Source: an uncultured Thermoanaerobaculia bacterium (GTDB taxonomy: Bacteria; Acidobacteriota; Thermoanaerobaculia; Multivoradales; SZUA-115). Taken from it: 64,000 bases of DNA. A program made the translations under genes and the position numbers. Below are positions 2,950-47,346 of this stretch, one piece after another. Positions within the stretch are counted from its first letter, which is position 1, and each line of letters begins with the position of its first letter. The notes beneath the pieces are model-generated. The model was not told the origin of the DNA. It did not search any database and saw only the letters and a program-made list of their open reading frames with translations. The stretch is from NCBI GenBank assembly GCA_964420075.1, contig CAYQRE010000001.1:133675-197674 (forward strand). The letters are read 5' to 3'.

Positions 2950-2954
2950 ACCCG

Positions 2955-3827: not shown

Positions 3828-3933
3828 ATCCCCGGGCTACCGACCTCGGCCCCTGGCGGGGCCCCGGGACGGACCCCCCTTCAGGCCGGACTGGGAGGGG
3901 CCGGTTTCAAACCGACCCTGGTCAACCACCCTC

Positions 3934-4836: not shown

Positions 4837-4870
4837 CGAGCGACTATTCTAGCGAGCCACTTCGAACATC

Positions 4871-7077: not shown

Positions 7078-7097
7078 TCCGCGCGCCGGCGCGGCGC

Positions 7098-7109
7098 GGC
7101 TGGTAGACT
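7098..7109 (+). promoter_or_regulatory. GGCTGGTAGACT element (extended -10-like TGgTAGACT), copy 1 of 2
   Basis: Identical 12-mer occurs again at 10224-10235, 11 nt before the wecA-like GTG. A related GGTTACCAGACT lies at 61-72 and an isolated TAGACT at 29122-29127, 8 nt before pcm ATG. Confidence 0.4.
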
Positions 7110-7189
7110 TCCATGTTGTCCCCGAAGCCGTCTCGAGGCATGCCCGCGAGGCTCTTGCTCGACATTTCTAGCCAAATGAGAATCTCAAG

Positions 7190-8209: not shown

Positions 8210-8238
8210 GGGGCGAAGGCCACCTGCCGCGCAGCTCG

Positions 8239-9348: not shown

Positions 9349-10139
9349 GCGCGGGGCTCAAGGCGGCGCTGCGCAGCCGCCTCCCTCGCCTCTTCCTCGC
9401 CCTGCGCGATCTGCGCTACCGGCTCCGCCCGGAACGCCCGGACCCGTCGCTCACGGAGCTCCTCACCCGCCTGTCTCCCGGAGCGCTCCGGGTGCAGAGC
9501 GGCCCCTTCGCCGCCATGACCTACCTGCCGCAGGCGCTGGGGAGCGGTCTCCTGCCGAAGATCGCCGGCACCTACGAGGCCGAGCTCCATCCGGTCCTCG
9601 AGCGAGCGATCGGCCGCCGGCCACGACGGCTGGTGAACATTGGCGCGGCGGAGGGCTACTATGCCGTCGGCCTCGCCCGCCGGCTGCCGGAGCTCGCTGT
9701 CTATGCCTTTGACCTCGAGCCCTTGGCTTTGCGTCGCCTGCCCGCCCTGGCGGCGGCCAACGGGGTAGCCGGGCGGGTGCAGTTCGAGAACCGCTGCACT
9801 CCCGCTCGCCTCGCCGTGCTGGCCGGCCCAGGCTGCCTCGTGGTCTGCGACTGCGAGGGCTGCGAGGCGGCGCTGCTCGACCCGCGGCAAGCCCCGGCGC
9901 TTGCCGCCGCGGACCTCCTCGTCGAGCTTCACCGGGCCGGCGACCCCGGCCGGCCCGAGGCCGTCCTCGCCCGCTTCGCCACCAGCCACCACTGCGAGCT
10001 CATCGAGGCCCAGCCGCCACCCGGCTCCCTGCCGCCTCAGCTGGCGGCCCGCCTGCGACCCGAGGAGCACGCCCGGGTGACCGACGAGGGACGGATCGAC
10101 GGCTTCCTCTGGGCCTGGCTCACGCCCCGGCAGCGCTGA
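9345..10139 (+). CDS. Putative methyltransferase (FkbM-like / class I SAM-dependent)
   Basis: LVNIGAAEGYYAVGLA SAM-binding-like motif and CDCEGCE resembling FkbM IDxEGxE; start overlaps previous stop. Tentative. Confidence 0.45.
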   Translation: MSAGLKAALRSRLPRLFLALRDLRYRLRPERPDPSLTELLTRLSPGALRVQSGPFAAMTYLPQALGSGLLPKIAGTYEAELHPVLERAIGRRPRRLVNIGAAEGYYAVGLARRLPELAVYAFDLEPLALRRLPALAAANGVAGRVQFENRCTPARLAVLAGPGCLVVCDCEGCEAALLDPRQAPALAAADLLVELHRAGDPGRPEAVLARFATSHHCELIEAQPPPGSLPPQLAARLRPEEHARVTDEGRIDGFLWAWLTPRQR

Positions 10140-10161
10140 TCCCACTCTCGCTCTCGTCGCA

Positions 10162-10182
10162 GGGCGGGTTTGAAACCCGCCC
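10162..10182 (+). terminator. GC-rich hairpin (GGGCGGGT-ttgaa-ACCCGCCC) after the methyltransferase gene
   Basis: Perfect 8-bp GC stem with 5-nt loop 23 nt after stop codon at 10139; no U-tract, as is common in high-GC genomes. Confidence 0.4.
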
Positions 10183-10223
10183 CTACACAACCCGGGCGCC
10201 ATTCGGCCCCCTGTCTCATGGCC

Positions 10224-10235
10224 GGCTGGTAGACT
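10224..10235 (+). promoter_or_regulatory. GGCTGGTAGACT element, copy 2 (putative leaderless promoter of the WecA-like gene)
   Basis: See copy 1; -10-like hexamer ends 11 nt before GTG 10247. Confidence 0.4.
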
Positions 10236-10246
10236 GCGGCCCTGCC

Positions 10247-11356
10247 GTGCGAAGCGTCGTCATCACCGCCTTGTGGGCCGCGGCGACCGCGGGCCTGGTC
10301 ACCAATCTGCTGGTGCCGGTGGCGGTGCGGCTGGCCCTTTTCCTGCGCATCCTCGACCATCCGAGCGAGCGCAAGACGCAGAGCCGTGCCGTGCCGCGGC
10401 TGGGTGGCCTCGCCATCTTCGCGGGCTTTGCCCTCGGTTCCCTCACCGTGCTGTTGATGAAGTGGAACCAGTGGAACCTGGGGATCTCCCGCTCCGAGCT
10501 GGTGGCCCTCTCGGTCGGCACCTTCCTGGTCTTCCTGGTAGGGGTGATCGACGACATCTTCGACGTCTCGGTGGCCAAGAAGCTGCTCATCGAGCTGGCC
10601 GCCGCCTACTTGCTGGTGCACATCGGCTGGTCCTTCCACGTGCTCGCCCTGCCGGGCGTCGGCAACGTCGAGCTCGGGGTCTTCGGCGAGCTGGTGTCGT
10701 TGCTGTGGATCGTCGGCTGCACGAACGCCATCAACCTGATCGACGGCCTCGACGGCCTCGCCGCCGGGGTGGTGGCGATCGTCGCCGTGGGGCTGTGGAT
10801 CTACGCCCTCGACATCGGCAACCTGCTGGCGGTGGTGCTGCTCGCGGCGATCGTCGGCGCCTGCCTGGGCTTTCTGCGCCACAACTGGGCGCCGGCCCGC
10901 ATCTTCATGGGCGATTCGGGCTCCCTCACCCTCGGTTTCCTGCTCGCCGCCACCAGCGTGCAGTCCTCGCTCAAGGCGCCGGCGGCGGTCGCCATCCTGG
11001 TTCCCATCCTCGCCCTCGGCCTGCCGGTCATCGACACCTTGCTGGTGATGTTCGTGCGCTTCCTCGATCGCCCGCACGGCCCCTTTCTCGAACGCTTCCT
11101 GCGCATGTTCCGCGCCGACCGCAACCACCTGCACCACACCCTCGAGCCGATCGTGGCGCACCGCGGCGGCATCGTGACAGCGATCTACGCCACCGCTATC
11201 CTCTTCTGCGGCATGGCGATCGCCGTCGCCCTGACCCACAACGCGACGCTGGGGTTGGGGCTGGTGGTGCTGGAGTTCCTCGCCGTGCTGGCGATGCGCA
11301 ACCTGGGGCGGATGCGCCGGGGCGGCGCCGAGGCAACGGCCGAGCCGCCGCCGTAG
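10247..11356 (+). CDS. Polyprenyl-phosphate N-acetylhexosamine-1-phosphate transferase (WecA/TagO/MraY family)
   Basis: GTG start; 10-11 TM protein with LDHPSERKTQSRAVPRLGG (DxPxxRKxH-like) and NLIDGLDGLAAG motifs characteristic of the MraY/WecA superfamily. TAGACT -10-like element ends 11 nt upstream. Confidence 0.8.
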   Translation: MRSVVITALWAAATAGLVTNLLVPVAVRLALFLRILDHPSERKTQSRAVPRLGGLAIFAGFALGSLTVLLMKWNQWNLGISRSELVALSVGTFLVFLVGVIDDIFDVSVAKKLLIELAAAYLLVHIGWSFHVLALPGVGNVELGVFGELVSLLWIVGCTNAINLIDGLDGLAAGVVAIVAVGLWIYALDIGNLLAVVLLAAIVGACLGFLRHNWAPARIFMGDSGSLTLGFLLAATSVQSSLKAPAAVAILVPILALGLPVIDTLLVMFVRFLDRPHGPFLERFLRMFRADRNHLHHTLEPIVAHRGGIVTAIYATAILFCGMAIAVALTHNATLGLGLVVLEFLAVLAMRNLGRMRRGGAEATAEPPP

Positions 11357-11365
11357 CGCCGCACC

Positions 11366-11530
11366 TCAGAAGATCGTGTAGATGAAGGGGGCGGACACCT
11401 GGCCGGCAGCGATCAGCAGGCCGAGCAGGCCGAGCACCAGGAGCAGCGGCACGATCCAATAGGCCTTGTGCTCACGGGCGAAGGCCAGCAGCTCCGCGAG
11501 CAGCCGGCCGCCGTGTCGTAACTTTCCCAT
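11366..11530 (-). CDS. DUF5989 / SxtK-like small membrane protein (54 aa; below ORF-track cutoff, translated by hand)
   Basis: Reverse strand ATG 11530..11528, TGA 11368..11366: MGKLRHGGRLLAELLAFAREHKAYWIVPLLLVLGLLGLLIAAGQVSAPFIYTIF; basic N-terminus, single TM helix and C-terminal APFIYTIF match DUF5989 proteins found downstream of NodU-type carbamoyltransferases. Confidence 0.6.
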   Translation of the reverse strand: MGKLRHGGRLLAELLAFAREHKAYWIVPLLLVLGLLGLLIAAGQVSAPFIYTIF

Positions 11531-11595
11531 CTCCGGTTCCCTTTCTCACCACGCCGGCGCCCGCGAGAGAGCACCGGCCCAAGCCGTCATGGCCC

Positions 11596-13443
11596 TCAAT
11601 CCAGCGTGAAGGTCTCCCGCCAGTTCTCCTTCTCCTCCCAGCCCGGCTGCTCGCGCTTGGCGAGGAGGAAGTCCTCCAGCACCAAGTAGTCCATCTCGCA
11701 GCGCATGAAGCAGCGGTAGGCGTCCTCCGGCGTGCAGACGATCGGCTCGCCGCGGACGTTGAAGCTGGTGTTGATCAGGATGCCGTAGCCCGTGCGCGCC
11801 TCGAAGGCCGAGATCAGAGCGTGGTAGCGGGGGTTGGTCTCGGCCGACACCGACTGGATGCGCGCCGAGCCGTCGACGTGGGTGATCGCCGGCACGTCCG
11901 AGCGCACCCGGTTGACCCACTCGAGGAGGTCGTCGCTGCGCACCGCGGCCGGCTGCTCGACGCAGCGCTCGCCCTGCACCTGGGCCACCAGCAGCATGTA
12001 GGGCGACGGGCGGTCGAGCGCGAAGAAGTCGCCGATCCTCTCCTCGAGCACCGAGGGGGCGAACGGCCGGAAGCTCTCCCGGTACTTGATCTTGAGGTTC
12101 ATGATCGACTGCATCTTGGGCGAGCGGGCGTCGCCGACGATCGAGCGGTTGCCGAGCGCCCGCGGCCCGAACTCCATGCGGCCCTGGAAGAGGCCGATGA
12201 CGTTCTCTTCGGCGATCAGCCGGGCGATCTCCGCGGCCCACTCGCCCTCACCCAACCGCCGCGCCGCATAGCCCTTGGCGGCGAGGAACTCGCCGATCTG
12301 CTCGTTCGAGAAGGCCGGCCCGAGGTAGGCGCCCTGCATGCCGTCGCCCCCCGGTCGCCGGCGGTTGGCCGGCTGCGGGCGGGGCTTGCCCAGACCGCAG
12401 TGGTAGTAGGCGAGCGCCGCGCCGACGGCGCCGCCGGCATCGCCGGCCGCCGGCTGGATGAAGAGGTCGTCGAAGATCCCCTCACGCAGGAGCACGCCAT
12501 TCGCCACGCAGTTGAGGGCCACGCCCCCGGCCAGGCAGAGCTTGCGCTTGCCGGTGAGCTGGCGGGCATGGCGGGCGGCGCGCAGCACGATCTCCTCGGT
12601 CACCGCCTGGATCGAGCGCGCGAGGTCCATCTCGCGGCGGGTGATCCGACCCTCGGGCTGCCGCGGCGGGCCACCGAAGAGCTTCTCGAAGCGCGGGCCG
12701 GTCATCCGCCAGCCGGCGAGGTAGTCGAAGTAGGAGAGGTCGAGGTGGAAGGAGCCGTCGGCCTTGAGGTCGACCAGCTCGCGCAGGATCAGGTCGCGAT
12801 AGACCGGCTCGCCGTAGGGCGCCAGGCCCATCAGCTTGTACTCGCCGGAGTTGACCTTGAAGCCCGTGAAGTAGGTGAAGGCCGAGTAGAGCAGGCCGAG
12901 CGAGTGGGGGAAGCGCATCTCCTCGACCAGCCGCAGGCTCGCCCCTTCGCCGACCCCGACGGTGGTGGTGGACCACTCGCCGACCCCGTCGAGGGTGAGG
13001 GTCGCGGCCTCCTCGAACGGCGAGGGGAAGAAGGCGCTCGCGGCGTGGGACTCGTGGTGCTCGGCGTAGAGGATGGGCGGCGGCTCGGTGAGGCCCAGGG
13101 TCGCGAGAGCGTCCTCGATCTGCGGGGTGAGCCAAAGCCGGTCGCGCAGCCACAGGGGGATCGCCTCCAGGTATTGGCTGAGGCCGCGCGGTGCCACGGA
13201 GAGATAGGTCTCGAGCAGGCGATGGAGCTTGAGGATCGGCTTGTCGTAGAACACCACCGCGTCGAGGCCGCCGTCGGTGATGCCGCCCTCGGCGAGGCAG
13301 TAGCGGCTCGCCTCGAGGGGGAAGCCGGGATCGTGCTTCTTGCGCGTGAAGCGCTCTTCCTGCGCCGCCGCGACGACCACGCCGTCTTCCACCAGGCAGG
13401 CGGCCGAATCGTGGTAGAAGGCGCTCAAGCCAAGGATTTTCAA
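11596..13443 (-). CDS. Carbamoyltransferase, NodU/CmcH family (second copy)
   Basis: 615 aa; ILGLSAFYHDSAACLVEDG...QEERFTRKKHD and KLMGLAPYGEP motifs; C-terminal NLKIKYRESFRPFAPS. Confidence 0.85.
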   Translation of the reverse strand: MKILGLSAFYHDSAACLVEDGVVVAAAQEERFTRKKHDPGFPLEASRYCLAEGGITDGGLDAVVFYDKPILKLHRLLETYLSVAPRGLSQYLEAIPLWLRDRLWLTPQIEDALATLGLTEPPPILYAEHHESHAASAFFPSPFEEAATLTLDGVGEWSTTTVGVGEGASLRLVEEMRFPHSLGLLYSAFTYFTGFKVNSGEYKLMGLAPYGEPVYRDLILRELVDLKADGSFHLDLSYFDYLAGWRMTGPRFEKLFGGPPRQPEGRITRREMDLARSIQAVTEEIVLRAARHARQLTGKRKLCLAGGVALNCVANGVLLREGIFDDLFIQPAAGDAGGAVGAALAYYHCGLGKPRPQPANRRRPGGDGMQGAYLGPAFSNEQIGEFLAAKGYAARRLGEGEWAAEIARLIAEENVIGLFQGRMEFGPRALGNRSIVGDARSPKMQSIMNLKIKYRESFRPFAPSVLEERIGDFFALDRPSPYMLLVAQVQGERCVEQPAAVRSDDLLEWVNRVRSDVPAITHVDGSARIQSVSAETNPRYHALISAFEARTGYGILINTSFNVRGEPIVCTPEDAYRCFMRCEMDYLVLEDFLLAKREQPGWEEKENWRETFTLD

Positions 13444-27335: not shown

Positions 27336-29111
27336 ATGCCCGCGCCGATCGCGGGCCAGGAGGAGTTGATGTCGACGCCCGTCCATCGTGCCGCTGCGCT
27401 CGCCGGCCCCGCCCGCTGCCGCCGCTGGGCGGCCGCGCTCATGCTCGTCGCCCTCGCCCCGGTGCCGCTCAGCGGCGCCACGTACAGCGTGGGGAGCGGC
27501 GCCGGTTGCACCCATGCCAACCTCGCCGCGGCGCTCGCCGCCGCGGATGCCAACCCGGGCGACGACACCATCCGCCTGCTCAGCAACAGCAGCCACCAGG
27601 GCCCCTTCCAGATCAGCACCCCGTTGGTCCTCGAGGGTGGCTACGCGACCTGCACGGCCACCACGCCCACCGGCAGCAGCACCCTCCTCGGTGCCACCGG
27701 CCAACGGGTGCTGACGATCTTCAACACCTCGACCAACCTCGTCGAGCTGCGGCGGCTGCTGCTCGTCGGCGGCAGCGTGACGGCCGACGGCGGCGGCGTC
27801 TACGTCCTCGGCACCGGCAGCGTGGTGCTGCGTGCCAGCACGGTGACGGGCAACCAATCGCAGGCCCGCGGCGGCGGCCTCTTCGTCCTCGGCACCGAGG
27901 GCACGTTCCTGCAACTGCTCGAGGGGACGACGGTGGCGAGCAACTCGGCGCAGAGCGGCGGCGGCCTCGGCTGCCTCGGCGCCGCCGAGATCACCATCGA
28001 TGCCACCTCGGCCGTCGCCAACAACAGCGTGACCGGCGACGGCGGCGGCGCCTATCTCACCAGCGCCTGCCGGTTGATCTCGTCCTCCGGCGGCTTCCTG
28101 GCCGGCATCGCCGGCAACCTGGCGAACGGCCGGGGTGGTGGCATCTACGCGGACAGCGGCTCGTCGGTCACCCTGCGGGCGAGCGACCGCGGCCTCGCCG
28201 ACCTCGGTGGCAACCAGGCAGGGGACGGCGGCGGCGTCTACGTCAGCGGCCTCGGTACCGCCTTCCGATCCTACGGCGGCTCACTCTCGAACAACACGGC
28301 CGGCGGGGCCGGCGGGGCCCTGTACGCGGCCGACAGTGCCACTGCCTACGTGACCACCGGCAACCCCGCCCTGGGCAACTGCCTGCAAGGGAACCTCTGC
28401 TCCCTCGTCGCCGGCAACCACGCGACCAACGCCGCCGCGATCCACGTCCGGGCCGCCGACGCCCTCGTCTTCGGCACCTACGTCCGCAACAACGTCGCCG
28501 GGCAGTCGGCCAGTGTGGGCATCCTGGCGCAAGGGGGAAGCCTCGCCTTCGACTCCTCGCTGCTCATCGCCAACCAGGGCCTCGAGGTGCTCGCCGTCGA
28601 CGGCGCCGGGAGCCAGCTGACGCTCGCCAATGTCACCCTGGCAGACAACCCCGGCAACGGCCAGGGCGTGATCGGCGCCGGCAGCGGCAACATGGTGGTG
28701 CGGGTCCTGTCGAGCGTCGTCTCGCAGGGCGGCGCCCTCTTCGCCCGCTACCCCTCCGGCTTCGCACCGCAGGTCGACTGCCTGCTCGCCGCCCAGGCCG
28801 CTCTGGTCGCCAGCCTGCCGCCGGCGGCCGTCGAGCGCGCCGTCCAGGTTGGCGACCCGCGCTTCGTCCACCCGGCGTCGGGCAACTACCACCTCGGCCT
28901 GGGCTCGCCGGCGATCGATGCCTGCGACGAGAGCCAGTACTCGAACCTCGGCCTGGATTTCGAGCTCGAAGCGCGGACCTACGACGACCCCGACGCACCC
29001 GAGCAGATGCCGAACGGCTGGCGCGACCTCGGGGCCGACGAGGTACAGCCGCTGTTTGCCGACGGCTTCGAGTCCGGCACGACGAGCGCCTGGACGCTCA
29101 CCGTGCCGTAG
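27336..29111 (+). CDS. Secreted right-handed beta-helix repeat protein with choice-of-anchor-Q-like N-terminal region (alt. start ATG 27369)
   Basis: Signal peptide, ATYSVGSGAGCTHANLAAALAAADANPGDDTIRL N-terminal signature, many G-G-G/NxxG beta-helix rungs, C-terminal tail ...LFADGFESGTTSAWTLTVP shared with the 45067..47346 protein. Confidence 0.6.
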   Translation: MPAPIAGQEELMSTPVHRAAALAGPARCRRWAAALMLVALAPVPLSGATYSVGSGAGCTHANLAAALAAADANPGDDTIRLLSNSSHQGPFQISTPLVLEGGYATCTATTPTGSSTLLGATGQRVLTIFNTSTNLVELRRLLLVGGSVTADGGGVYVLGTGSVVLRASTVTGNQSQARGGGLFVLGTEGTFLQLLEGTTVASNSAQSGGGLGCLGAAEITIDATSAVANNSVTGDGGGAYLTSACRLISSSGGFLAGIAGNLANGRGGGIYADSGSSVTLRASDRGLADLGGNQAGDGGGVYVSGLGTAFRSYGGSLSNNTAGGAGGALYAADSATAYVTTGNPALGNCLQGNLCSLVAGNHATNAAAIHVRAADALVFGTYVRNNVAGQSASVGILAQGGSLAFDSSLLIANQGLEVLAVDGAGSQLTLANVTLADNPGNGQGVIGAGSGNMVVRVLSSVVSQGGALFARYPSGFAPQVDCLLAAQAALVASLPPAAVERAVQVGDPRFVHPASGNYHLGLGSPAIDACDESQYSNLGLDFELEARTYDDPDAPEQMPNGWRDLGADEVQPLFADGFESGTTSAWTLTVP

Positions 29112-29135: not shown

Positions 29136-29876
29136 ATGAGACCTTCGTGCCGCCGGTCCGCCCTCGCTGCGCTCGCCCTCGCTGCCGCCTTGCAGGCCGG
29201 TGCCGGCCCCGATCCCTACGCCGGCTCCCGGGCCTCGATGGTCGAGGCGGTGAAGGTGGACACCGCCTTCCACGGCGGCTTCGTGGGCCGCGACGAGCTG
29301 TCGCCGCGGCTGCTCGCGGCCCTCGGCAGCGTGCCGCGCCACGAGTTCGTGCCGGCGGCCGAGGTCGAGACCGCCTACGAGAACCGGGCGATCCAGCTCG
29401 GCGGTGGCCGCAGCCTGCCGGCGCCCTACGTGACGGCGATCCTCGCCGACCTGCTCGACATCGGCGGCAATGCCCGGGTGCTGGAGGTCGGCACGGGCTG
29501 CGGCTACGAGGCGGCGCTGCTCTCCTCGCTCGCCGCGCGCGTGCTCACCCTCGACCCTGACCCAAACGTCGTCGCCGCCGCCCGCAAGCGCCTCGCCCGC
29601 CTGGGCTACAGCAACGTGACGGTGCGCCAGGGCGACCTCGAGACCGGCTGGCAGGAGGAGGGCATCCTCTTCGACGCCATCCTGGTCAGCAACGCCGTCG
29701 ACGCCATCCCCCAGCTGCTGCTCACCCAGCTACGGCCGGGGGGCAACCTCGTGGTACCCGTCCACGGCGAGGGTGGCAAGCCCTACCTCACCGTGGTGCA
29801 CAAGAACGACAAGGGAAGGCTCAAGCCCAAGCCGCGGCCCTTGCTGCAGATCGCCGTCGACCCCCTGCCCCGCTGA
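29136..29876 (+). CDS. pcm: Protein-L-isoaspartate O-methyltransferase (secreted/periplasmic form with signal peptide)
   Basis: VLEVGTGCGYEAALLS SAM motif and overall PIMT architecture; TAGACT -10-like element 8 nt upstream of ATG. Confidence 0.8.
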   Translation: MRPSCRRSALAALALAAALQAGAGPDPYAGSRASMVEAVKVDTAFHGGFVGRDELSPRLLAALGSVPRHEFVPAAEVETAYENRAIQLGGGRSLPAPYVTAILADLLDIGGNARVLEVGTGCGYEAALLSSLAARVLTLDPDPNVVAAARKRLARLGYSNVTVRQGDLETGWQEEGILFDAILVSNAVDAIPQLLLTQLRPGGNLVVPVHGEGGKPYLTVVHKNDKGRLKPKPRPLLQIAVDPLPR

Positions 29877-29978: not shown

Positions 29979-30575
29979 GTGGAGCTCACGGTGGTCGATA
30001 GGCTGCGGCACGTGATCGCCGGCGATCGCGAGGCGGCCGCCTGGCTCTACGACTGTTTTGCGACGAGCCTCTTCCAGCGCCTCGGCCGCCGCTACGGCTA
30101 CCTGACGCTCGAGGAGCGCGAGGACGTCCTGCAGGACACCTTCGTCCACGCCCTCCGCCACGACGGCCGCCTGCTCGCCTCGTTTCTCGAGCGCGCGGCC
30201 GGGACCGCGCCCGAGCCCGGCGACCTCGAGCGCTTCCTCTGGGATCAGGCCTGCGGTCTGGTCGCCAACCGACGCCGCTCCCGCCTGGCCCGCCGCTGGG
30301 TGCCGCTCGGCGACGAGGACGAGGCCGAACCCGACCCGGTGTCGGCCGAGCAGCGGCTGATCGACCGCGATTCCCTGCGCAAGCTGGATCACTGTCTACG
30401 CGACCGGGGCCAGCGCGTCTATCTCTACTTTCAGTTGCGCTATGCCGACGGCCTCGCGCCGGAGGAGATCGTCGCCGCCACGGGCTGGTCCCGCAAGGCG
30501 ACCTACAAGCTGAGGCAGGCCCTCAACCGCGCCGTCGACGCCTGCCTGGCGCTGCTGCGACGGCTCCCCGGCTGA
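29979..30575 (+). CDS. RNA polymerase sigma-70 factor, ECF subfamily
   Basis: GTG start with GGAGG RBS; region 2 (DVLQDTFVHALRH) and region 4 HTH (RVYLYFQLRYADGLAPEEIVAATGWSRKATYKLRQAL). Confidence 0.7.
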   Translation: MELTVVDRLRHVIAGDREAAAWLYDCFATSLFQRLGRRYGYLTLEEREDVLQDTFVHALRHDGRLLASFLERAAGTAPEPGDLERFLWDQACGLVANRRRSRLARRWVPLGDEDEAEPDPVSAEQRLIDRDSLRKLDHCLRDRGQRVYLYFQLRYADGLAPEEIVAATGWSRKATYKLRQALNRAVDACLALLRRLPG

Positions 30576-30579
30576 CGGC

Positions 30580-33477
30580 ATGGGGAGCGCGGGGGCAGGG
30601 CCGGCCCGGGCCGGCCGTCGCGGGCTCGGCGGGGCGCCGGGGGTGGTCGCGCTGGTGGCCGCTGCCCTCGCCGCGGTGGTCGCAGGCGGCCGGGCGAGCG
30701 AGCGGGCACCGGCCGGGCTCGCGGTGACGGTGCGCGGCCACGGTGAGGTGGCCCTCGACGGCGTCGACCTTCCGCCGGTCCCTCGCTTCCTCGGCCGTTC
30801 GCCACGGCCGGGCCTCTGCGTGGCAGCGCCTCCCCGCCTCGACACCAGCCTCTGGCAGGCCGAGCTCTGGCTGAGCGGGCCCGGGCGGGCCGACTCGTAC
30901 CGCCAGCGGGTGAGCCAGCCCGAGCGCCTCGCCTCGACGCTCTGTTTCGACGCCAGCTTCGCGGACCAGACGACGCCGGGCCGGGCCTTGCTCTGCGGCG
31001 AGGTCACCGACGCCTACGACGGCGGCCGCTTTTCCCTCGGCTGCCAGCCGGTCGAGCTCGGCGGCCCGACGGCGTCGCTCACCCGCCTGCAGGCCACGAC
31101 GGCGGACCTCCTCAACGGCTTCACGGACGAGGCCTATGCCGCCTGGTCTCGGCGCCTCACGGCCCTCGCCCAGCGCGCGGCTGCCGAGGGCCTGCCGCTG
31201 TTTTCAGCCCAGCTCCGGCTGATCGCCGTCCACCAAGGCCTGCTTACCGGCAAGCCGGCCGACCTCGCCGAGGGCGCCCGGCAGCTCGCCGCGATCCCTT
31301 CCTGGGTGAAGCAGCCGGCCGCCAGCGCGGTCGCCGCCCAGGTCGCCTACCACCGGGCGCTCCTCGCCCAGGCCCAGGACAGCGACCTCGAAGGAGCCTG
31401 GTTCGAGCTCGAGGGGGCCTACGACCTCTACCGGCGGACGGCCGACCCCTTCTGGATCACCGTGCCGATGAAGCAGGCCGAGATCCTCGCCGCAGTGGGT
31501 GACGGCCTCGAGGCCGCCGAGAGGCTCGCAGCCGCCCTCGGCGAGTGCGCCCAGGCCGGCTGCGATCCCCAGCTGCAATCCGCTGCCGAGCAGGAGCTGG
31601 GCTGGATCGAGCTCTTGGAGCCCGACGCCGGGCCGCCGGAGCTCGCCGCCAGTCGCCGCCACCTGGAACAGGCCCTCGGCCTGAGCAGCGTCGCGGCCGA
31701 TCGCCTCGAGGCGCTCAACGTGCGGCTGAGCCTCGCCTATCTGACCCTGCGCCAGGGGGGCGACCCGCAGGCCGAGCTGGGGACCATCGAGAGCGGCCTC
31801 GCCGCGCTCCCGGCGAGTGGCCGCGGCAGGCTGCTGCGGGCCTGGGCCGAGCTTCTCGGTGGCATCGCAGCCTCCGCCCAGGGCCGACCGCGAGCGGCCC
31901 TCGCCACCTGCGCGCCGCTCGCCGACAACCCGGTCCCACGCCTCGCCGCCTGGGCGGCGAGCTGCGCCGCCGAGGCCGAACGGCGGCGCGGCGACCTCGA
32001 CCGTGCCGCCGGCTGGTTCGACCGTGCCCTCGACCTGCACGCGCGCCAGGGGCTCGACAACCTCGGCCAGCGCCTGCCCCTGGGGCAAGGGCAGGTGACG
32101 GACGACTTCCTCGCCGCGGCCCGCCTCGCCGTCGAGCGCGGCGAGCCGGCGAAGGCCTGGGCCCTGCTCGACCGCCTCGACGCCTTCGCCTCGCGACGGC
32201 CGGCAGCGCGCCCCTGCGGCCCCCGACCCGCCGCCGAGCGCCAGCTCGACGCCAGCCTGGAAGCCGATCTCGAGGCCCTCGACAGGCCGGCCGCGGGCGT
32301 TCGGCGAGGCCAGATCGAGCCCCTGCGGCGGGCCCTGCGCGAGCGCCTGCAAGACCGCCTGCGCCGGCGTCAGCCCTGCGGCGAAGGCGGCGCGGCGGCA
32401 CCGGCCGGCCTCGCCGCTCCGTCGCGAGCCGACCTGCGGGCCTTCGCCCTCGCCGACGAAGTGATCGTGCTGTGGCGCCATGCCGACGCAACGGTGGAGC
32501 TGGTGCGCCGCACGGCGCTCTCGCGGCGGACGCTGCGCCAGGCCCTCGCCGAACTCGAGACGGCCGCCGAGAAGGGCGAGGCCACCAGCTGGCGCCGGCT
32601 GGCGGCGCCGCTCGGCGCCGCCCTGGCCCCCCCGGCGGAGGCTGCTGGCGAACCTCGTCATGGCTGGCTCTATGCCCTCCACGGCCTGCTGCAGCGCGTG
32701 CCGTTGTTCGCCCTGCCGATGCCGGACGAGCCAGGCGCCACGCCGCAGCCGCGCTGGCTCATCGCGCGGGCTGCCCTCGCTCTCGAGCCCACGGCACCGG
32801 CCCTGGGACCGACGGCGCGCGAGCGCGCGAGCCAGCCCCTCTTCGTGGTCGATCCGCGTCGCGACCTGCCCGCCGGCCGGGCCCTCCTCGCCGACTACCG
32901 GCGGCTGTTTCCCCAGGCCGATGTCCTGGCCGGCGGCGAGGCCCGCCGCGCCGCCGTGCTCGCTCGCCTCGCCGCCGCGAGCCTCTTCCACCTCGACGCC
33001 CACGGCAGCTATCTCGGCGCCTTCCCCGACCTCTCGCGCCTCGAGCTCGCGGACGGCGGCCTCTCCCTCGGCCAGTTGCGCGAGCTGGCCCCAGCCCCCT
33101 GGCTGGTCAACCTCTCGTCGTGCCGCTCCGGGGCTTGGCCGGCCACGGCGGACCGCGGCCACTACGGCATCGCGGGCCTCTTCGCCGCCAACGGCAGCTC
33201 CTGGGTGGTGGCGAGCCGCGGCGACCTCGACGACCGGATGGCCGGCGAGTTCAACCGCGAGCTCTACACCGCCCTGACCGCGGGCAGCCCCCCAGCCGTG
33301 GCGTTCCAGAAGGCCCTGCTCCAAGTCGCCCAGCGCTATCCACCGGCGGACTGGGGCGGCATGCTGCTGCTCCATCGGCCGGCCTCCCCGCCAGAGGGGG
33401 AGGTCGAGCCCGCTCGCGACTCCCAGGCAGACAGAGAAGACGGTCTCGGCCCCGGCCGCGACCGCCAAGGAGAGTGA
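30580..33477 (+). CDS. CHAT-domain (caspase-like) protease with long N-terminal TPR-like helical region
   Basis: 965 aa; C-terminal CHAT signature with His (SLFHLDAHGSY) and Cys (WLVNLSSCRSG) dyad; starts 4 nt after ECF sigma stop. Confidence 0.7.
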   Translation: MGSAGAGPARAGRRGLGGAPGVVALVAAALAAVVAGGRASERAPAGLAVTVRGHGEVALDGVDLPPVPRFLGRSPRPGLCVAAPPRLDTSLWQAELWLSGPGRADSYRQRVSQPERLASTLCFDASFADQTTPGRALLCGEVTDAYDGGRFSLGCQPVELGGPTASLTRLQATTADLLNGFTDEAYAAWSRRLTALAQRAAAEGLPLFSAQLRLIAVHQGLLTGKPADLAEGARQLAAIPSWVKQPAASAVAAQVAYHRALLAQAQDSDLEGAWFELEGAYDLYRRTADPFWITVPMKQAEILAAVGDGLEAAERLAAALGECAQAGCDPQLQSAAEQELGWIELLEPDAGPPELAASRRHLEQALGLSSVAADRLEALNVRLSLAYLTLRQGGDPQAELGTIESGLAALPASGRGRLLRAWAELLGGIAASAQGRPRAALATCAPLADNPVPRLAAWAASCAAEAERRRGDLDRAAGWFDRALDLHARQGLDNLGQRLPLGQGQVTDDFLAAARLAVERGEPAKAWALLDRLDAFASRRPAARPCGPRPAAERQLDASLEADLEALDRPAAGVRRGQIEPLRRALRERLQDRLRRRQPCGEGGAAAPAGLAAPSRADLRAFALADEVIVLWRHADATVELVRRTALSRRTLRQALAELETAAEKGEATSWRRLAAPLGAALAPPAEAAGEPRHGWLYALHGLLQRVPLFALPMPDEPGATPQPRWLIARAALALEPTAPALGPTARERASQPLFVVDPRRDLPAGRALLADYRRLFPQADVLAGGEARRAAVLARLAAASLFHLDAHGSYLGAFPDLSRLELADGGLSLGQLRELAPAPWLVNLSSCRSGAWPATADRGHYGIAGLFAANGSSWVVASRGDLDDRMAGEFNRELYTALTAGSPPAVAFQKALLQVAQRYPPADWGGMLLLHRPASPPEGEVEPARDSQADREDGLGPGRDRQGE

Positions 33478-33482
33478 GGACC

Positions 33483-34406
33483 GTGGACCGACCCGGCAAC
33501 GACGCTGCGCCGATCTCCCGCGAGACGTGGCTGCGAGCCCTTGCCCTGGCGGCGTACGGCGCGCACGACCACGGTGTCGACGCGGCCGGGCCCGACCTCG
33601 GTGACGGCCCGCGCCGCGAGGAGCTCGCCGCCTACCGCCGTGGTGAGCTCGGGGCGGCCGCGCGCAACCGCATCGAGGCACAGCTGGTCGCCAGCCGGTC
33701 AGCGCGCCAGCTGCTCGTCGCGCTGGCCACCAGCGAGGCAGCCGCTCCCTCGCCGCGGGTCCGGCGGGCGGTCCTCGCCGCGGCGGCCGGCCAGTCGCCG
33801 GCAGCCCCGCGGCGGGTTGGCCTCCGGGCCCTCCGCGGCCTGGCGCTCGCCGCCTCGCTGGTCTTGGCGGTGGCGAGCGGCTGGTGGTGGCTGAGCCACC
33901 TGCAGGGCCACGGCCCCCTGCCGGACTTCACCGTCGAGGCGCACGGCATCGCCACCCACCGCGGTGGCAGCGAGGGCGCGGTGGACGGCGCCGGGGAGCC
34001 GGCCCTGGTGCGGCCCGAGACCGAGCTGGAGATCTTCGCCAGCGCCGAGCGTGCCGTCCGTGGGGTCGAGGGTGGGCTCTACGTGCTGCGTGGCGGCGGC
34101 CTCGAACGCCTGCCTCCGGGGCCGCGCCTCCGGGTCGAAGAAGAGCGCGGGGCCCTGCAGCTCACCGCCCGCGCGGCCGACCTCCTGGGCGCCGAGCTGC
34201 AGCCCGGCGAGCATCACGTCTGGCTCGCGCTTGGCTGGCAAGGCACCCTGCCGGCGAGGGTCGAGCTCGCTCCCGGGGAGGACCCGGCCACGGCCCTCCG
34301 GGCCCCGGACCGTCGCGTCGTACCCGTCCGGCTGCGGCTGCTGGCCGCGCCGCCGATGGGCGAGAACCCGGGGCCAGCAGGCCCCGCTGCCGAGGAGGAA
34401 CCGTGA
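33483..34406 (+). CDS. Putative anti-sigma factor (single-pass membrane protein)
   Basis: GTG start 5 nt after CHAT stop; N-terminal ...RREELAAYRRGELGAAARNRIEAQL... anti-sigma-domain-like motif, one TM helix (LRGLALAASLVLAVASGWWWL), periplasmic C-terminus. Upstream part of track ORF 31545.. is artefact. Confidence 0.5.
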   Translation: MDRPGNDAAPISRETWLRALALAAYGAHDHGVDAAGPDLGDGPRREELAAYRRGELGAAARNRIEAQLVASRSARQLLVALATSEAAAPSPRVRRAVLAAAAGQSPAAPRRVGLRALRGLALAASLVLAVASGWWWLSHLQGHGPLPDFTVEAHGIATHRGGSEGAVDGAGEPALVRPETELEIFASAERAVRGVEGGLYVLRGGGLERLPPGPRLRVEEERGALQLTARAADLLGAELQPGEHHVWLALGWQGTLPARVELAPGEDPATALRAPDRRVVPVRLRLLAAPPMGENPGPAGPAAEEEP

Positions 34407-36163
34407 GCTTCGAGCCTCTGCAACGCTGCCGCCGCCACACCCGCTCCCTTGGGCTGGCGATCACCGTTCTTACCGCCTGGCTCGCCGCCTCCTCGGCCGC
34501 CGCCAAGGAGGTCCGCTGGTACCTCGACACCACGGGCCGCGACCCACAATGGCCGGGCAGCTTTGCCGCCGCCTGCGGCCGCCTCGGCACCTACCACTTC
34601 GCCATCGACACCGGCGGCCCGGCGCCCTGGCCGGGCGCCGCCGAGGGCAAGCTCAACGGCCAGGAGGAGCCACCGGGGTACGCTCGCCCCACCGCCACCG
34701 GCGAGCTGCCGGAGCCGGCCGCCGCCTTCGCCTGGCTGCCCGCTGCCGAGCGGCCGATCTGCCTCGGCGACGGCGGCCGCTGCGACGGCAGCCGGCCCTG
34801 GCTCGCCGTCCTCGACTGGGGCAATGAGCACGGCCGCAGCGTCGGTCGGCTGGCCTGGGAGATCGCTAACCCCCCGGAGGCGGCGGCCGCGGTCGACGTG
34901 CTGCTCTTTCCCCTCGACCGTACCCGCCGCGAGCTCGCCATCTACTCGCAGCGCGGTGCCACCGACTTCCACGTCCTCAACCGCCTCTGTCAGCTGGCGG
35001 CGGCGGTGGACGCCAAGCGCCTGCCACCGCCCCTCGCCCTCAACCTGAGCTTCGGCCGCGCCGCCCTGCCGGGCGATCCAGCTGAGAGCGGCGGCTGTCC
35101 GGGCCAGAGCCTCGGCTGCCAGATCCACCAGGTGCTGGCCCACCTCGCCGCCCGGCCGGCCGACGGCGGCGCCGGTGTGATGGTGGTGGCGGCGGCCGGC
35201 AACCACCGCCGGCTGCTCTTCCCGGCGAGCCTGCCGCAGGTGGTGGCGACGGGGATGCTCGACAGCACCGCTCTCGGCGCCAGCGCCGGCGTGGTCCCGG
35301 CCTGGGAAACACCGAGCAGCCGCAGCAAGGCCGCCTGGTCCCTGATGCCAGGGGCTGGTCTCTGCCTGCCGCAGGGCGTCGATGGTCAGGGCAGCGAGCC
35401 CGAGCCCCTGCCAGCCGGCTCGTCCTACGCCGCCAGCCTGTTGACCGGCTGGCTCGCCGGCCCCCTGCTGGCCCGCGAGCCGCTCGAGCCCGGCTCCTAC
35501 TTCTGGCCCGAGCTGCGCTGGCAGGGCAGCCGGCCGACGGCCGTGCTGGTCGCTGGCTCGGCCCGCCTGGAGAGCATGAACAGCCGGGTCAACGACCAGC
35601 TGGCGGCCGTCTTCGCGGGATGCGGCTGGCAGCCAGCCGGGGCCCTCGAAAGCAACGAGGGGCGGCTCGCCACGGGTCTGTTGGGTGCCATCCTCGACCC
35701 CACGAGCCGGCTGCCGAGCCCCGTCGACCTCGCCGCGGCACCGAGCGAAGGCCCCACCCAGCCGACCCCGGACTCGAACCCGTGCGTGCCCTGTGTGAGC
35801 GTGCTCAAGCCGCCGCCGAACGGCCTCCTCGCCCGCCTCGGCACCGGCACTGGGACGAGCGACGGCCAGCCGCCGGCCGCCGGCACCACCCTGGAGGTCG
35901 CGGCCTGGGCCTCCCGCCCCTTCGGCGCGGGAGTTCGCGTGCTCGGCCTTTATCTGCGCAGCGGCAACCGCTTCCAACCACTCGCCCTGACGGCGAGTGA
36001 GCTCGACGCCCTCACCGAGGGCAACGTCAAGCGACTGGAGATCCAGCTCGACGCCCTCGCCGCAGCACCGAGCGGCCAGCTGTCCCTGGTCTACCTGCTG
36101 CGCTCGAGCGATCGCCGGGCCGAGAAGTTCTGGACCTCGGTGCCGATCCTGCCCCTGCCGTAG
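34403..36163 (+). CDS. S8-family subtilisin-like serine peptidase
   Basis: GTG start with GAGGAGG RBS, overlapping anti-sigma stop; catalytic triad blocks HFAIDTGG (Asp), WGNEHGRSVG (His), GSSYAASLLTG (Ser), plus VVAAAGNH. Confidence 0.65.
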   Translation: MSFEPLQRCRRHTRSLGLAITVLTAWLAASSAAAKEVRWYLDTTGRDPQWPGSFAAACGRLGTYHFAIDTGGPAPWPGAAEGKLNGQEEPPGYARPTATGELPEPAAAFAWLPAAERPICLGDGGRCDGSRPWLAVLDWGNEHGRSVGRLAWEIANPPEAAAAVDVLLFPLDRTRRELAIYSQRGATDFHVLNRLCQLAAAVDAKRLPPPLALNLSFGRAALPGDPAESGGCPGQSLGCQIHQVLAHLAARPADGGAGVMVVAAAGNHRRLLFPASLPQVVATGMLDSTALGASAGVVPAWETPSSRSKAAWSLMPGAGLCLPQGVDGQGSEPEPLPAGSSYAASLLTGWLAGPLLAREPLEPGSYFWPELRWQGSRPTAVLVAGSARLESMNSRVNDQLAAVFAGCGWQPAGALESNEGRLATGLLGAILDPTSRLPSPVDLAAAPSEGPTQPTPDSNPCVPCVSVLKPPPNGLLARLGTGTGTSDGQPPAAGTTLEVAAWASRPFGAGVRVLGLYLRSGNRFQPLALTASELDALTEGNVKRLEIQLDALAAAPSGQLSLVYLLRSSDRRAEKFWTSVPILPLP

Positions 36164-45066: not shown

Positions 45067-47346
45067 ATGACCACCACCGCCCGCCGGCTCTTTGCCTCGG
45101 CCGTCGCCTGCTGCCTCGCCGCCCTGCCACCGCTGTCGCTCACCGCCGGCGAGGCCTTGGCCGTCCGCAGCGGAGGGGCGCTGCCGAACCCGATCCTCTT
45201 CGTCACCCAGATGCCGATCCCGGTGGACTTCGCGACCATCGGCTCGACCTTTGCCAACCACCTTGGCGGGCTGCAGGAGGTCGGCCGCGGCGGCGACCTC
45301 TACATCCGCTACCCGGACGGCAGCCTGCGCAACCTCACCCAGGAGGCGGGCTACGGCGTGAGCGGCTTCCAGGGTGCGACCGCGATCGCCGTGCGCAACC
45401 CAGCGGTGCACTGGAGCGGCACCAAGGCGGTGTTCAGCATGGTGATCGGCGCTCCCACGCAGCAGTTCCAGCTCGGCACCTACTTCTGGCAGCTCTACGA
45501 GGTGAGCGGCCTCGGCCAGGGGCAGACGGCGGTGATCACCAAGGTGCCCAACCAGCCGGCGCAGTACAACAACGTGATGCCGATCTACGGCTCGGACGGC
45601 CGCATCCTCTTCGTCTCGGACCGCCCGCGCTCCGGCGCGGCCCACCTCTACCCGCAGCTCGACGAGTACGAGGAGACGGCCACCAACACCGGCCTATGGA
45701 GCCTCGACCCGGCGACGGGCAACCTCAACCTCCTCGACCACTCGCCCTCCGGCGTCTTCACGCCCATCCTCGATCGCTACGGCCGGGTGCTGTTCACCCG
45801 CTGGGACCACCTCCAGCGCGACCAGCAGGCCGACACCGACGTCTTGAGCGGCGATACCTACGGCACCTTCAACTACGCCGACGAGAGTGCCGGGGCCACC
45901 CGCTTGCCGAACCGCGACGAGGTCTTCCCCGAGCCCCGGCCGGTGCGCCAGGACCTCCTCGGCGGCACCAACCTGGAGGGTCACACGATCAACCACTTCT
46001 TCCCCTGGCAGGTCTTCCAGAACGGTACCGGGGAAGAGGTGGTCAACCACCTGGGGCGCCACGAGCTGCATGCGTACTTCAACCGCAGCATCAACGACGA
46101 CCCCAACCTCGAAGAGCTGATCGCAGAGACCTCCGGGCGGGTGAACCCCAACTCGATCAACAACTTCCTCCACCTGCGCGAGGACGTGCTGGCGGCCGGT
46201 ACCTACCTCGGCGTGGACGCGCCGGAGTTCCAGACCCACAGCTCCGGCCAGCTGATCGCGATGTTCGCCCCGCCCGGCCGACCCGCCGATCAGATCGCCA
46301 TCACCTACCTCACCCACCCGGACACCCGCCAGGTCGTGCCGGACGGTCAGATGCCGCCGCCCAACCACTCGGGCCACTACCGCAGCCCGCTGCCGCTGGC
46401 GGACGGTGAGGTGGCGGTCGTCCACGCCCCCGAGACGCACCGGGTGGCGAACCTCGGCACCCGCGCCAACCCGGTCCCCAACTACCGTTTCCGCTTGAGG
46501 CTGCTCACCCCGCGCGTGGATGGCTACTTCGAGGCCGGCACGCCGCTCACCGCCGGGATCAGCAAGACGATCTCCTACTGGGACCCGGACGTGCTGGTGC
46601 AGTACAACGGCGAGCTCTGGGAGCTCGACCCGGTGGAGGTCCGGCCGCAGAGCGTGCCGCCCTACCTCACCGCCCCCCTGCCGGCGCCGGAAGCGCAGGT
46701 CTTCCGCGAGGAAGGGGTGAACCCGCGCAGCCTGTCGCGCGACCTCGCGACGCGCGGCCTGGCCCTTCTCGCCGCCCGCAACGTGACCTACCGCGACCAG
46801 CTCGACCACCAACAGCCCTTCAACCTCCTGGTGCCAGGCGGTGAGCAGACGCTGGGTGCTGGCGGGCGGATCTACCAGGTGGCACACATGCAGCTCTTCC
46901 AGGGCGACCAGATCCGCGGCCTCGGCGGCACTGCCAACCCGCGCCCGGGCCGCCGTGTCCTCGCCCAGCTGCTGCATGACCCGGTCGCCGTGGCTGCCAA
47001 CCCACCCAACCCGGGCGGTCCGCTGGCCAGCACCCGGGTGGCCCTCGACGGCTCGGTGGCGGCGTTCGTCCCCGCCCACCGCGCCCTTTCCTGGCAGACC
47101 ACCGATGGCACCGGGACGCCGGTGGTGCGTGAGCGCTACTGGCTGACCTTCCAGCCGGGTGAGCTGCGCGCCTGCGACGGCTGCCACGGGGTCAACAGCC
47201 TCAACCAGGCCGGCGAGCCGGCTGCCAGCAACGCCCCCGAGGCCCTGCGCCAGCTGCTCCAGCACTGGAAGGCCGAGACCGGCCTGATCTTCTCGGACGG
47301 CTTCGAGAGCGGCGACACCAGCGCCTGGGCGTCCACCGTGCCGTAG
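45067..47346 (+). CDS. Large secreted hypothetical protein with single CxxCH motif and C-terminal DGFESGDTSAW tail
   Basis: Start ATG 45067 with signal peptide (MTTTARRLFASAVACCLAALPPLSLTAGEA); 759 aa; CDGCHG near C-terminus; ends ...LIFSDGFESGDTSAWASTVP. Confidence 0.55.
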   Translation: MTTTARRLFASAVACCLAALPPLSLTAGEALAVRSGGALPNPILFVTQMPIPVDFATIGSTFANHLGGLQEVGRGGDLYIRYPDGSLRNLTQEAGYGVSGFQGATAIAVRNPAVHWSGTKAVFSMVIGAPTQQFQLGTYFWQLYEVSGLGQGQTAVITKVPNQPAQYNNVMPIYGSDGRILFVSDRPRSGAAHLYPQLDEYEETATNTGLWSLDPATGNLNLLDHSPSGVFTPILDRYGRVLFTRWDHLQRDQQADTDVLSGDTYGTFNYADESAGATRLPNRDEVFPEPRPVRQDLLGGTNLEGHTINHFFPWQVFQNGTGEEVVNHLGRHELHAYFNRSINDDPNLEELIAETSGRVNPNSINNFLHLREDVLAAGTYLGVDAPEFQTHSSGQLIAMFAPPGRPADQIAITYLTHPDTRQVVPDGQMPPPNHSGHYRSPLPLADGEVAVVHAPETHRVANLGTRANPVPNYRFRLRLLTPRVDGYFEAGTPLTAGISKTISYWDPDVLVQYNGELWELDPVEVRPQSVPPYLTAPLPAPEAQVFREEGVNPRSLSRDLATRGLALLAARNVTYRDQLDHQQPFNLLVPGGEQTLGAGGRIYQVAHMQLFQGDQIRGLGGTANPRPGRRVLAQLLHDPVAVAANPPNPGGPLASTRVALDGSVAAFVPAHRALSWQTTDGTGTPVVRERYWLTFQPGELRACDGCHGVNSLNQAGEPAASNAPEALRQLLQHWKAETGLIFSDGFESGDTSAWASTVP

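Follow-up and report, generated by a model that had tools for sequence, protein, structure and literature searches.

A conserved terminal tag on unrelated exported proteins of Thermoanaerobaculia, related to the first strand of jelly-roll domains, as a candidate localisation module

Two otherwise unrelated exported proteins encoded in a stretch of 64,000 nucleotides from an uncultured Thermoanaerobaculia bacterium (contig CAYQRE010000001.1; henceforth the window, meaning this whole stretch) end in a common tail of about 20 residues. The tail is real, very widespread and under selection at the level of the peptide; its position, its conservation, the range of its carriers and its evolutionary origin can be read from the comparisons assembled here. 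We interpret it as an autonomous terminal module on many unrelated Sec-exported proteins of the Thermoanaerobaculia, and consider the chances about even that it serves as a localisation or anchoring tag recognised in trans. The localisation role is well motivated, the evidence that points to it being circumstantial.

A shared C-terminal tail on two unrelated exported proteins

The two genes, here termed cargo 1 and cargo 2, lie in a window with a G+C content of 72%, whose proteins have their nearest relatives in metagenome-assembled genomes (MAGs) of the Thermoanaerobaculia. Their features are:

27336..29111, forward strand: cargo gene 1, 591 residues from the first ATG, encoding an exported protein with PMP-like repeats and a right-handed beta-helix fold
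27369..27479, forward strand: predicted Sec signal peptide of cargo 1 (MSTPVHRAAALAGPARCRRWAAALMLVALAPVPLSGA), read from the sequence; a low-confidence N-terminal helix in the AlphaFold2 (AF2) model
29052..29108, forward strand: terminal tag copy 1, LFADGFESGTTSAWTLTVP, with the stop codon at 29109-29111
45067..47346, forward strand: cargo gene 2, encoding an exported protein of 759 residues with a beta-propeller fold, similar to hydrazine synthase alpha and carrying a single CxxCH haem site
45067..45162, forward strand: predicted Sec signal peptide of cargo 2 (MTTTARRLFASAVACCLAALPPLSLTAGEALA), read from the sequence; an N-terminal helix and then a low-confidence linker in the AF2 model
47173..47187, forward strand: haem c binding motif CDGCH, residues 703-707 of cargo 2, with C703, C706 and H707 invariant in 70 homologues
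47287..47343, forward strand: terminal tag copy 2, IFSDGFESGDTSAWASTVP, with the stop codon at 47344-47346

The translation of cargo 1 (27336-29111) ends in ...PLFADGFESGTTSAWTLTVP and that of cargo 2 (45067-47346) in ...LIFSDGFESGDTSAWASTVP, each followed at once by the stop codon. When the two proteins are compared by BLASTP, the tail is the sole significant alignment (E = 4e-06), the rest scoring at E >= 0.1, which bears out the description of the two as otherwise unrelated in an earlier note made from the sequence of the window. That note had further called the tails identical: a common pattern, [LI]F-x-DGFESG-x-TSAW-xx-TVP-stop, is indeed present on both, but the tails agree at 14 of 19 positions and are thus not strictly identical. 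The core DGFESG-x-TSAW occurs exactly twice in the window, both by six-frame motif search and by a degenerate DNA pattern, with none expected on the basis of 100 dinucleotide-preserving shuffles of the window.

The bodies of the two proteins are of different kinds, and the beta-helix and the CxxCH site that had been proposed for them were both recovered. Public gene calls start cargo 1 at Met12, i.e., at 27369, giving a protein of 580 residues (homologue label P0001). Its Pfam matches to Beta_helix and Chlam_PMP are both weak; the body of its AF2 model is a beta-helix with a predicted local distance difference test score (pLDDT) above 90, and among solved folds a PL6 lyase and Rhombotarget A come closest. 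Cargo 2 contains a hydrazine-synthase-alpha middle domain and is modelled as a beta-propeller, with the hydrazine synthase 5c2v as the top PDB fold match (E = 1e-17). Its family is very large and highly conserved (4220 matches), with about 60% identity even to sequences labelled Planctomycetota and Chloroflexi. Signal-peptide-like segments are present at both N-termini, as had been suggested, judged from the sequence itself and from a heuristic based on hydropathy, and not by a dedicated predictor.

In the models of both proteins, for which the input alignments consisted mostly of tag-bearing sequences, the tail is unpacked, devoid of strands or contacts and of low confidence (pLDDT of about 48 in cargo 1 and about 57 in cargo 2, where it follows a conserved core end of the form ...PEALRxLLxxWK). 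The possibility that the tail is part of the fold of its own carrier is hence unsupported by the two models.

Distribution of the tag and selection on the peptide

The consensus of the tag is [ILV]-F-x-D-G-F-E-[ST]-G-x-x-x-x-W-S-x-x-V-P followed by the stop codon. Orthologues of cargo 1 at 40-45% identity retain it at the C-terminus. When the two tails were joined into one query for a word-based search, 120 short protein fragments came back, and about 116 of these end in [ILVM]F-x-DGFESGDTSAWS-x-TVP with unrelated sequence before each. A degenerate DNA pattern, which fixed Thr at one position, was then scanned against reference genomes, one per species, and recovered at least 120 loci with at least 130 matches, the counts and the taxonomy being biased lower bounds. 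Among the matches listed, the distance from the Asp to the stop is exactly 16 codons in 78 of 130 and at most 19 codons in about 115 of 130, while the stop codon directly follows the Trp in 9 of 130. The assemblies among these matches are mostly labelled as Thermoanaerobaculia or its orders, Acidobacteriota/Acidobacteria or 'Holophagae' (57 of 69). The matches in Thermomicrobiaceae, Actinomycetales and Acidimicrobiia are all internal, and the first two of these open a jelly-roll (LamG-like) domain.

When 1.84 billion cluster representatives (50% identity) were searched exhaustively with a profile, 6461 protein clusters were obtained at E <= 0.001, in which nearly all single-match proteins carry the motif 16 residues from their end. 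The search in relatives that the earlier note had proposed thus found the motif at the C-termini of many different cargos. As many as 5 loci fall in a single MAG among the matches listed, plus further tagged open reading frames (ORFs) within the same 8-kb loci; a rough extrapolation from two copies in 64 kb would put the tagged exoproteins at perhaps a hundred or more per genome.

Across the 78 canonical copies all synonymous codons are in use, with Ser encoded by both TCN and AGY, and the residues are constant, which points to selection on the peptide and not on the DNA. Positions left free by the pattern are conserved as well (F at -2 in 70, S at +11 in 63 and P at +15 in 69 of the 78). Further, tags collected through homology of the carrier bodies, and so without bias towards the tag, give [IL](-3) F(-2) x D G F E S G xxxx W S xx V [PG], the stretch from the Asp to the end being 16-17 residues long; when these are included, the nearly invariant positions are F(-2), D, G, F, E, G and W. 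A DNA-level element at the 3' ends of genes, such as a repeat, a terminator or a recombination site that is translated by chance, would account for the recurrence at that position and for nothing else. Of 60 aligned nucleotides, 12 differ between the window's two copies, the changes being partly synonymous (including a TCC/AGC switch for Ser) and otherwise in variable residues of the tag. With the codon usage of the 78 copies, which rules such an element out, its probability is vanishingly small.

Carrier proteins and placement of the tag

The 82 complete tagged ORFs from the loci listed fall into 43 clusters that are mutually unrelated outside the tag. By a crude hydropathy rule 64 of the 82 have a signal peptide, and several others are visibly positive, some of them with the segment further into the ORF. 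A Pfam census of the carriers includes InhA-like MAM, FG-GAP, Peptidase_S8, BNR, Chlam_PMP, LVIVD, Trypsin_2, Beta_helix, GSDH and Peptidase_M28 domains, together with multihaem cytochromes having Cytochrome_C7 and MtrC/MtrF-like domains, all of which are typical of surface or extracellular proteins.

No conserved linker is found upstream of the tag. In rare cases the tag is placed otherwise than as a single C-terminal copy: a complete 20-mer directly follows the signal peptide, with other domains coming next, in P0279, P0316, L036 and L084, and tandem tags are seen at the C-termini of P0254, P0257, P0264, P0275, P0349 and P0263. These arrangements fit a binding tag that behaves as an autonomous module. 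Additionally, in one ORF (L071:5381-6379, reverse strand) the tag is followed by a hydrophobic and basic tail of the IPTL-CTERM type (...AWSTVIPALFGDGPLVNGMLLVLMVAGAAVMRLKER). Similar tails, with IPxL, a hydrophobic helix and a basic end, are present at ORF ends in the same MAGs (L082 and L067).

A Cys lies 4-14 residues (also given as at most 11) upstream of the tag in 31 of 103 tagged ORFs (L004-L123), i.e., in 30% as compared with an expected 12.6%. This suggests that, just before the flexible tag, the folded body is often held at its end by a disulfide.

Relationship to jelly-roll domains

The top matches of the exhaustive search contain 2-5 copies of the motif about 190-300 residues apart, the first just after the signal peptide and the last about 190 residues before the end, a spacing which indicates that the motif in these proteins opens a repeated domain. 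In Pfam, these repeated domains match PF14099 (Polysacc_lyase, of the ConA-like jelly-roll fold) from profile position 1 and CBM_4_9 (PF02018) from positions 2-4. In the ConA-like jelly-roll domains (PF14099, PF02018 and LamG-like versions) the sequence F-x-D-G-F-E-S-G-x-x-x-x-W occupies profile positions 1-20. With a profile hidden Markov model (HMM) built from 51 jelly-roll units, the Thermoanaerobaculia tags match positions 1-16 only. The isolated tag consensus gives only weak matches at E <= 10, to positions 3-20 of CBM_4_9 and to positions 5-22 of the NCBIfam model NTTRR-F1, and a PDB sequence search with one intact jelly-roll unit returned no match. On these alignments, the tag derives from the first beta-strand and turn of a ConA-like jelly-roll domain or is homologous to them.

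The tag nonetheless differs from these domains in lacking the remaining 120-190 or so residues of a complete beta-sandwich of about 140-210 residues. As only the first strand is present and the stop codon comes 16 residues after the Asp, it is not itself a jelly-roll domain. Intact jelly-roll units were absent, by the unit HMM, from about 800 ORFs (about 1 Mb) of the scanned loci, except at the Actinomycetales locus. The earlier note had allowed that the motif might be the start of a known folded domain, or internal in homologues. This turned out to be half the case, since the motif is the internal first strand of PF14099 and CBM_4_9 domains, but on the proteins considered here it is a deliberate stand-alone module and not an accidental truncation.

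That origin raises the question of whether the tag is an evolutionary remnant of lost C-terminal jelly rolls, or a strand of generic kind capping the domain before it, with no role in sorting. The identity of the motif with the first strand of a known fold would fit such an explanation, as would one cargo 2 homologue (P0459) in which the motif is followed by about 190 further residues, and the placement of the tag, in some carriers, behind the final strand of a jelly roll of MAM or CBM-like type. A remnant should decay, yet 13 contiguous residues are nearly invariant in more than 40 unrelated families, at a fixed distance from the stop and with free synonymous change; AF2 places the tail against neither body, and N-terminal and tandem copies exist. 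On balance, we regard this explanation as improbable.

Alternative endings in homologous proteins

When homologues of the two cargo proteins are aligned, a conserved body is seen to be followed, at the same site, by one of several different endings. In the beta-helix family of cargo 1 the body ends in D-x-G-A-x-E, after which one of four endings is found:

Long tag (n=24)
Short [ILV]F-x-[DN]GF[ED] end (about 30 of the 31 scored by regular expression; P0061 is a misfit, with a hydrophobic and basic tail)
PEP-CTERM-like motif with a hydrophobic helix and a basic tail (n=6)
Short ...YLPLxxR end (n=12)

In the hydrazine-synthase-like family of cargo 2 the ...PEALRxLLxxWK helix is followed by 3-8 residues and then by a varied C-terminal module:

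Long tag (most sequences)
Short tag (P0392, P0416, P0434, P0436, P0455)
YLPxxTR-type ends
Dockerin-like repeats (P0379, by a precomputed PF00404 match; P0411, P0443 and P0449, by eye)
Calx-beta arrays
FlgD_ig domain of the type seen with the type IX secretion system, T9SS (P0463)
Short basic tails
Motif with about 190 further residues (P0459; a jelly roll by eye, in a region where Pfam reports no domain)

Of the indirect evidence, this interchange of anchor modules speaks most strongly for the tag as a localisation or docking module.

The short tag consists of [ILV]F-x-[DN]GF[ED], 0-3 residues and the stop codon (a subset of P0025-P0073), and [DN]-G is invariant across the long and short forms. 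The named sources of the short-tag homologues of cargo 1 are Xanthomonadales, Wenzhouxiangella, Dokdonella and Alcanivoracaceae, and in some homologues the short tag comes after a complete CBM-like jelly roll. A second short ending, ...[IVL][YF]LP[LI]xx[RK] (e.g., IYLPLLRR or HLPLVTR), occupies the same slot as the tag and has no full transmembrane helix; its carriers, which include homologues of both cargo proteins, are a subset of P0062-P0120 along with P0396, P0418, P0423, P0427, P0442 and P0465, one of them labelled Chloroflexi. The Calx-beta-extended homologues of cargo 2 (P0383, P0384, P0389, P0398, P0406, P0407 and others) all share the ending ...GFSFDTP[LM]xx[KR]PR, perhaps a further terminal motif; among related sequences, a partial one bears the label Vicinamibacteria.

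Comparison with known sorting and docking systems

Small C-terminal sorting domains have been characterized by a set of common attributes, namely C-terminal location, multiple occurrences per genome, a signature motif in which no fewer than three residues hardly vary, a hydrophobic segment of transmembrane length, a terminal cluster of basic residues, signal peptides on the carriers and a co-distributed cognate sorting enzyme (10.1101/2023.06.07.544157). The tag resembles such tripartite domains (LPXTG/sortase, PEP-CTERM/exosortase, GlyGly-CTERM/rhombosortase, MYXO-CTERM and IPTL-CTERM) in C-terminal location, multiplicity, invariant motif and carrier signal peptides, as well as in its unrelated carriers of extracellular type, its restriction to a lineage and its occupation of the same slot in homologous proteins. 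Unlike them, it can be N-terminal in the mature protein or tandem, and it is an acidic or polar peptide of 19-20 residues that ends in ...S-x-T-V-P with no Arg or Lys. Having neither a transmembrane helix nor a basic cluster, it is not a member of the tripartite class. The same features had led the earlier note to state that the tail matches no known signal, and searches of the Pfam and NCBIfam libraries with both the proteins and the isolated tails accordingly found no known signal model; neither library gave a match over the tail of either window protein or contains a model dedicated to the tag. As to the claim that such a tail is the hallmark of a sorting or secretion signal, agreement with four of the Haft criteria on more than 40 unrelated families speaks for it, whereas the internal occurrence in jelly rolls, the N-terminal and tandem copies and the lack of any dedicated machinery among the loci searched do not.

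Other export and assembly signals offer partial parallels. The T9SS C-terminal domains (Por secretion tails) are likewise C-terminal signals of beta structure, without a transmembrane segment, on Sec-exported proteins of diderm bacteria; they are, in contrast, folded beta-sandwiches of 70-100 residues with Pfam and NCBIfam models, whereas the tag, at about 20 residues, cannot fold alone, and Por_Secre_tail-type models gave no match to the tails even at E <= 10. Type I secretion signals belong to proteins that lack an N-terminal signal peptide and usually have RTX repeats upstream of the signal, whereas the tag's carriers have signal-peptide-like N-termini, with no RTX match in either window protein. 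The beta-signal of outer-membrane proteins forms the last strand of a beta-barrel, with alternating hydrophobic residues and an aromatic one at its terminus; in contrast, Pro is the final residue of most tags, the position two before the Trp holds Ser or Thr, and the two bodies are soluble folds, a beta-helix and a beta-propeller, and not barrels. Dockerins are duplicated Ca-binding loop-helix units of about 60-70 residues (PF00404), and the tails give no PF00404 match.

By analogy, the nearest mechanistic counterparts of the tag may be dockerin-type docking and donor-strand or split-domain complementation, the latter being a process in which a single strand completes the beta-sandwich of another protein. 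Like dockerins with their cohesins, the donor strands of chaperone-usher pilins and SpyTag with SpyCatcher, the tag would be short and tolerant of position, and would attach the various secreted enzymes that carry it to a partner; it is unlike the cohesin and SpyCatcher systems in that a cohesin-like or catcher-like acceptor was not found within the sequences searched.

A variant with no dedicated receptor may also be envisaged, in which tags pair with each other, or swap into the intact jelly rolls of other secreted proteins, so that exoproteins are cross-linked into a surface matrix or a multi-enzyme assembly, dockerin-like in effect. Tandem tags, the dockerins found at the same slot in homologues, the retention by the tag of the residues that are conserved where the intact domain begins and the failure to find a single receptor are all compatible with this. 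Nevertheless, intact domains of the matching family are essentially absent from the Thermoanaerobaculia sample, and a 20-residue acidic peptide with a net charge of about -3 offers no obvious self-associating unit, which makes association of this kind unlikely.

Genomic neighbourhoods of the tagged genes

The genes around the two cargo genes, their orthologues at two other loci and the scanned loci (at least 120, with genes clustered all-against-all) were inspected for a co-occurring protease or transporter, as the earlier note had recommended. This expectation was disappointed, since no dedicated protease, transporter or receptor is found in any of these local neighbourhoods. The untagged neighbours that recur in the 120 loci are limited to extracytoplasmic function (ECF) sigma factors, accompanied by Ser/Thr kinase-TPR proteins (15 and 9 loci), and to an ABC exporter (6 loci); considered as sorting machinery, both the sigma factor/kinase pairs and the exporter are better read as abundant regulators than as sorting enzymes. 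The gene pairs of an ECF sigma factor and a Ser/Thr kinase-TPR protein of about 1000 residues stand beside tagged genes at 15 of 120 loci (L011, L015, L028, L033, L054, L092, L101, L102, L120 and others; L127), and may represent dedicated regulation of individual exoproteins or the mere abundance of such paralogues.

In the window, the cargo genes are neighboured by genes for an EgtB-like DinB_2/FGE-sulfatase protein, a protein-L-isoaspartate O-methyltransferase (PCMT), an ECF sigma/CHAT cluster, MacAB-type exporter components, an SDR and a Usp protein, and an S41 peptidase gene lies about 6 kb upstream of cargo 1. The following are placed downstream of cargo 1:

29136-29876, forward strand: PCMT homologue, 25 bp downstream of cargo 1, with an N-terminus resembling a signal peptide
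29979-36163, forward strand: ECF-sigma-like protein of 198 residues, CHAT-domain protein of 965 residues and two proteins without a Pfam match (307 and 586 residues)

The PCMT and S41 genes bear on a further alternative, namely that the tag is a periplasmic site of processing or modification that controls maturation or turnover and not location, either through a free C-terminus read by a PDZ-bearing S41 protease or through an Asp-Gly isoaspartate or succinimide site used by an exported PCMT-type methyltransferase. In addition to the proximity of the two genes to cargo 1, the invariance of [DN]-G would be in keeping with this. The adjacency is, on the other hand, absent at the two orthologous loci and neither gene recurs in the 120 cargo loci, so that both were rejected as dedicated partners; tags at a mature N-terminus cannot offer a free C-terminus, and S-adenosylmethionine is not expected outside the cytoplasm. 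We hold such processing or modification to be quite unlikely.

A sigma factor and a CHAT protein are also found near the orthologue P0003. At the other end of the window, 173-13443 holds a polysaccharide-modification cluster with a GT2 enzyme, two carbamoyltransferases, an FkbM methyltransferase, a GDSL esterase, an acyltransferase_3 protein, an NAD-dependent epimerase and a GT4 (WecA-like) enzyme.

A possible mechanism and its significance

Returning to the reading of the tag as a localisation or anchoring module, it would, once its carrier has been exported by Sec, act as a flexible peptide through which the carrier crosses, or is kept at, the outer membrane or cell surface, with a partner protein reading it in trans. 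The most economical mode of binding would be beta-sheet augmentation or strand complementation, the tag contributing the strand that it contributes in cis in an intact jelly roll; this mechanism is speculative and is drawn from analogy. As the tag has no transmembrane segment, cleavage by a membrane-embedded enzyme of the sortase type would not be expected.

Several observations weigh against this role. Besides the empty neighbourhoods, a candidate acceptor, i.e., a jelly roll without its first strand, was not recovered by the unit HMM from about 800 ORFs in about 1 Mb of Thermoanaerobaculia sequence, and no open-access paper on the motif or the topic was found. The transmembrane helix and basic cluster of the tripartite domains are missing, and the coexistence of tag and IPTL-CTERM tail in L071 implies that the tag is not a simple substitute for such signals. 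Further, the low AF2 confidence of the tails is no proof of disorder, and the counts and taxonomy from the genome scan are biased lower bounds.

In its most specific form, the proposal is that the Thermoanaerobaculia, and through the short form of the tag some Gammaproteobacteria, possess a sortase-independent, transmembrane-free display system in which a split jelly-roll acceptor at the surface captures the orphan strand; we put this forward tentatively, as a possibility with a clear minority of the probability. If true, strand capture would be a natural analogue of the engineered strand-complementation tags and a new route of surface anchoring in diderm bacteria.

The tag looks to be undescribed, to go by the Pfam and NCBIfam libraries and the open-access literature. 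A simple HMM of it would allow thousands of 'hypothetical' proteins to be flagged, phylogenetic profiling with the same HMM could expose the partner machinery, and a natural docking peptide of 20 residues might find use in protein engineering. If sorting or anchoring is what the tag is for, it would represent a class of signals without a transmembrane part, and hence with a mechanism unlike those of LPXTG, PEP-CTERM and GlyGly-CTERM. For the organisms themselves, should the tag direct localisation, it would mark the surface and secreted proteome of an abundant and almost uncultured class of acidobacteria, a proteome that includes proteases, adhesin-like beta-helices and MtrC-like multihaem cytochromes.

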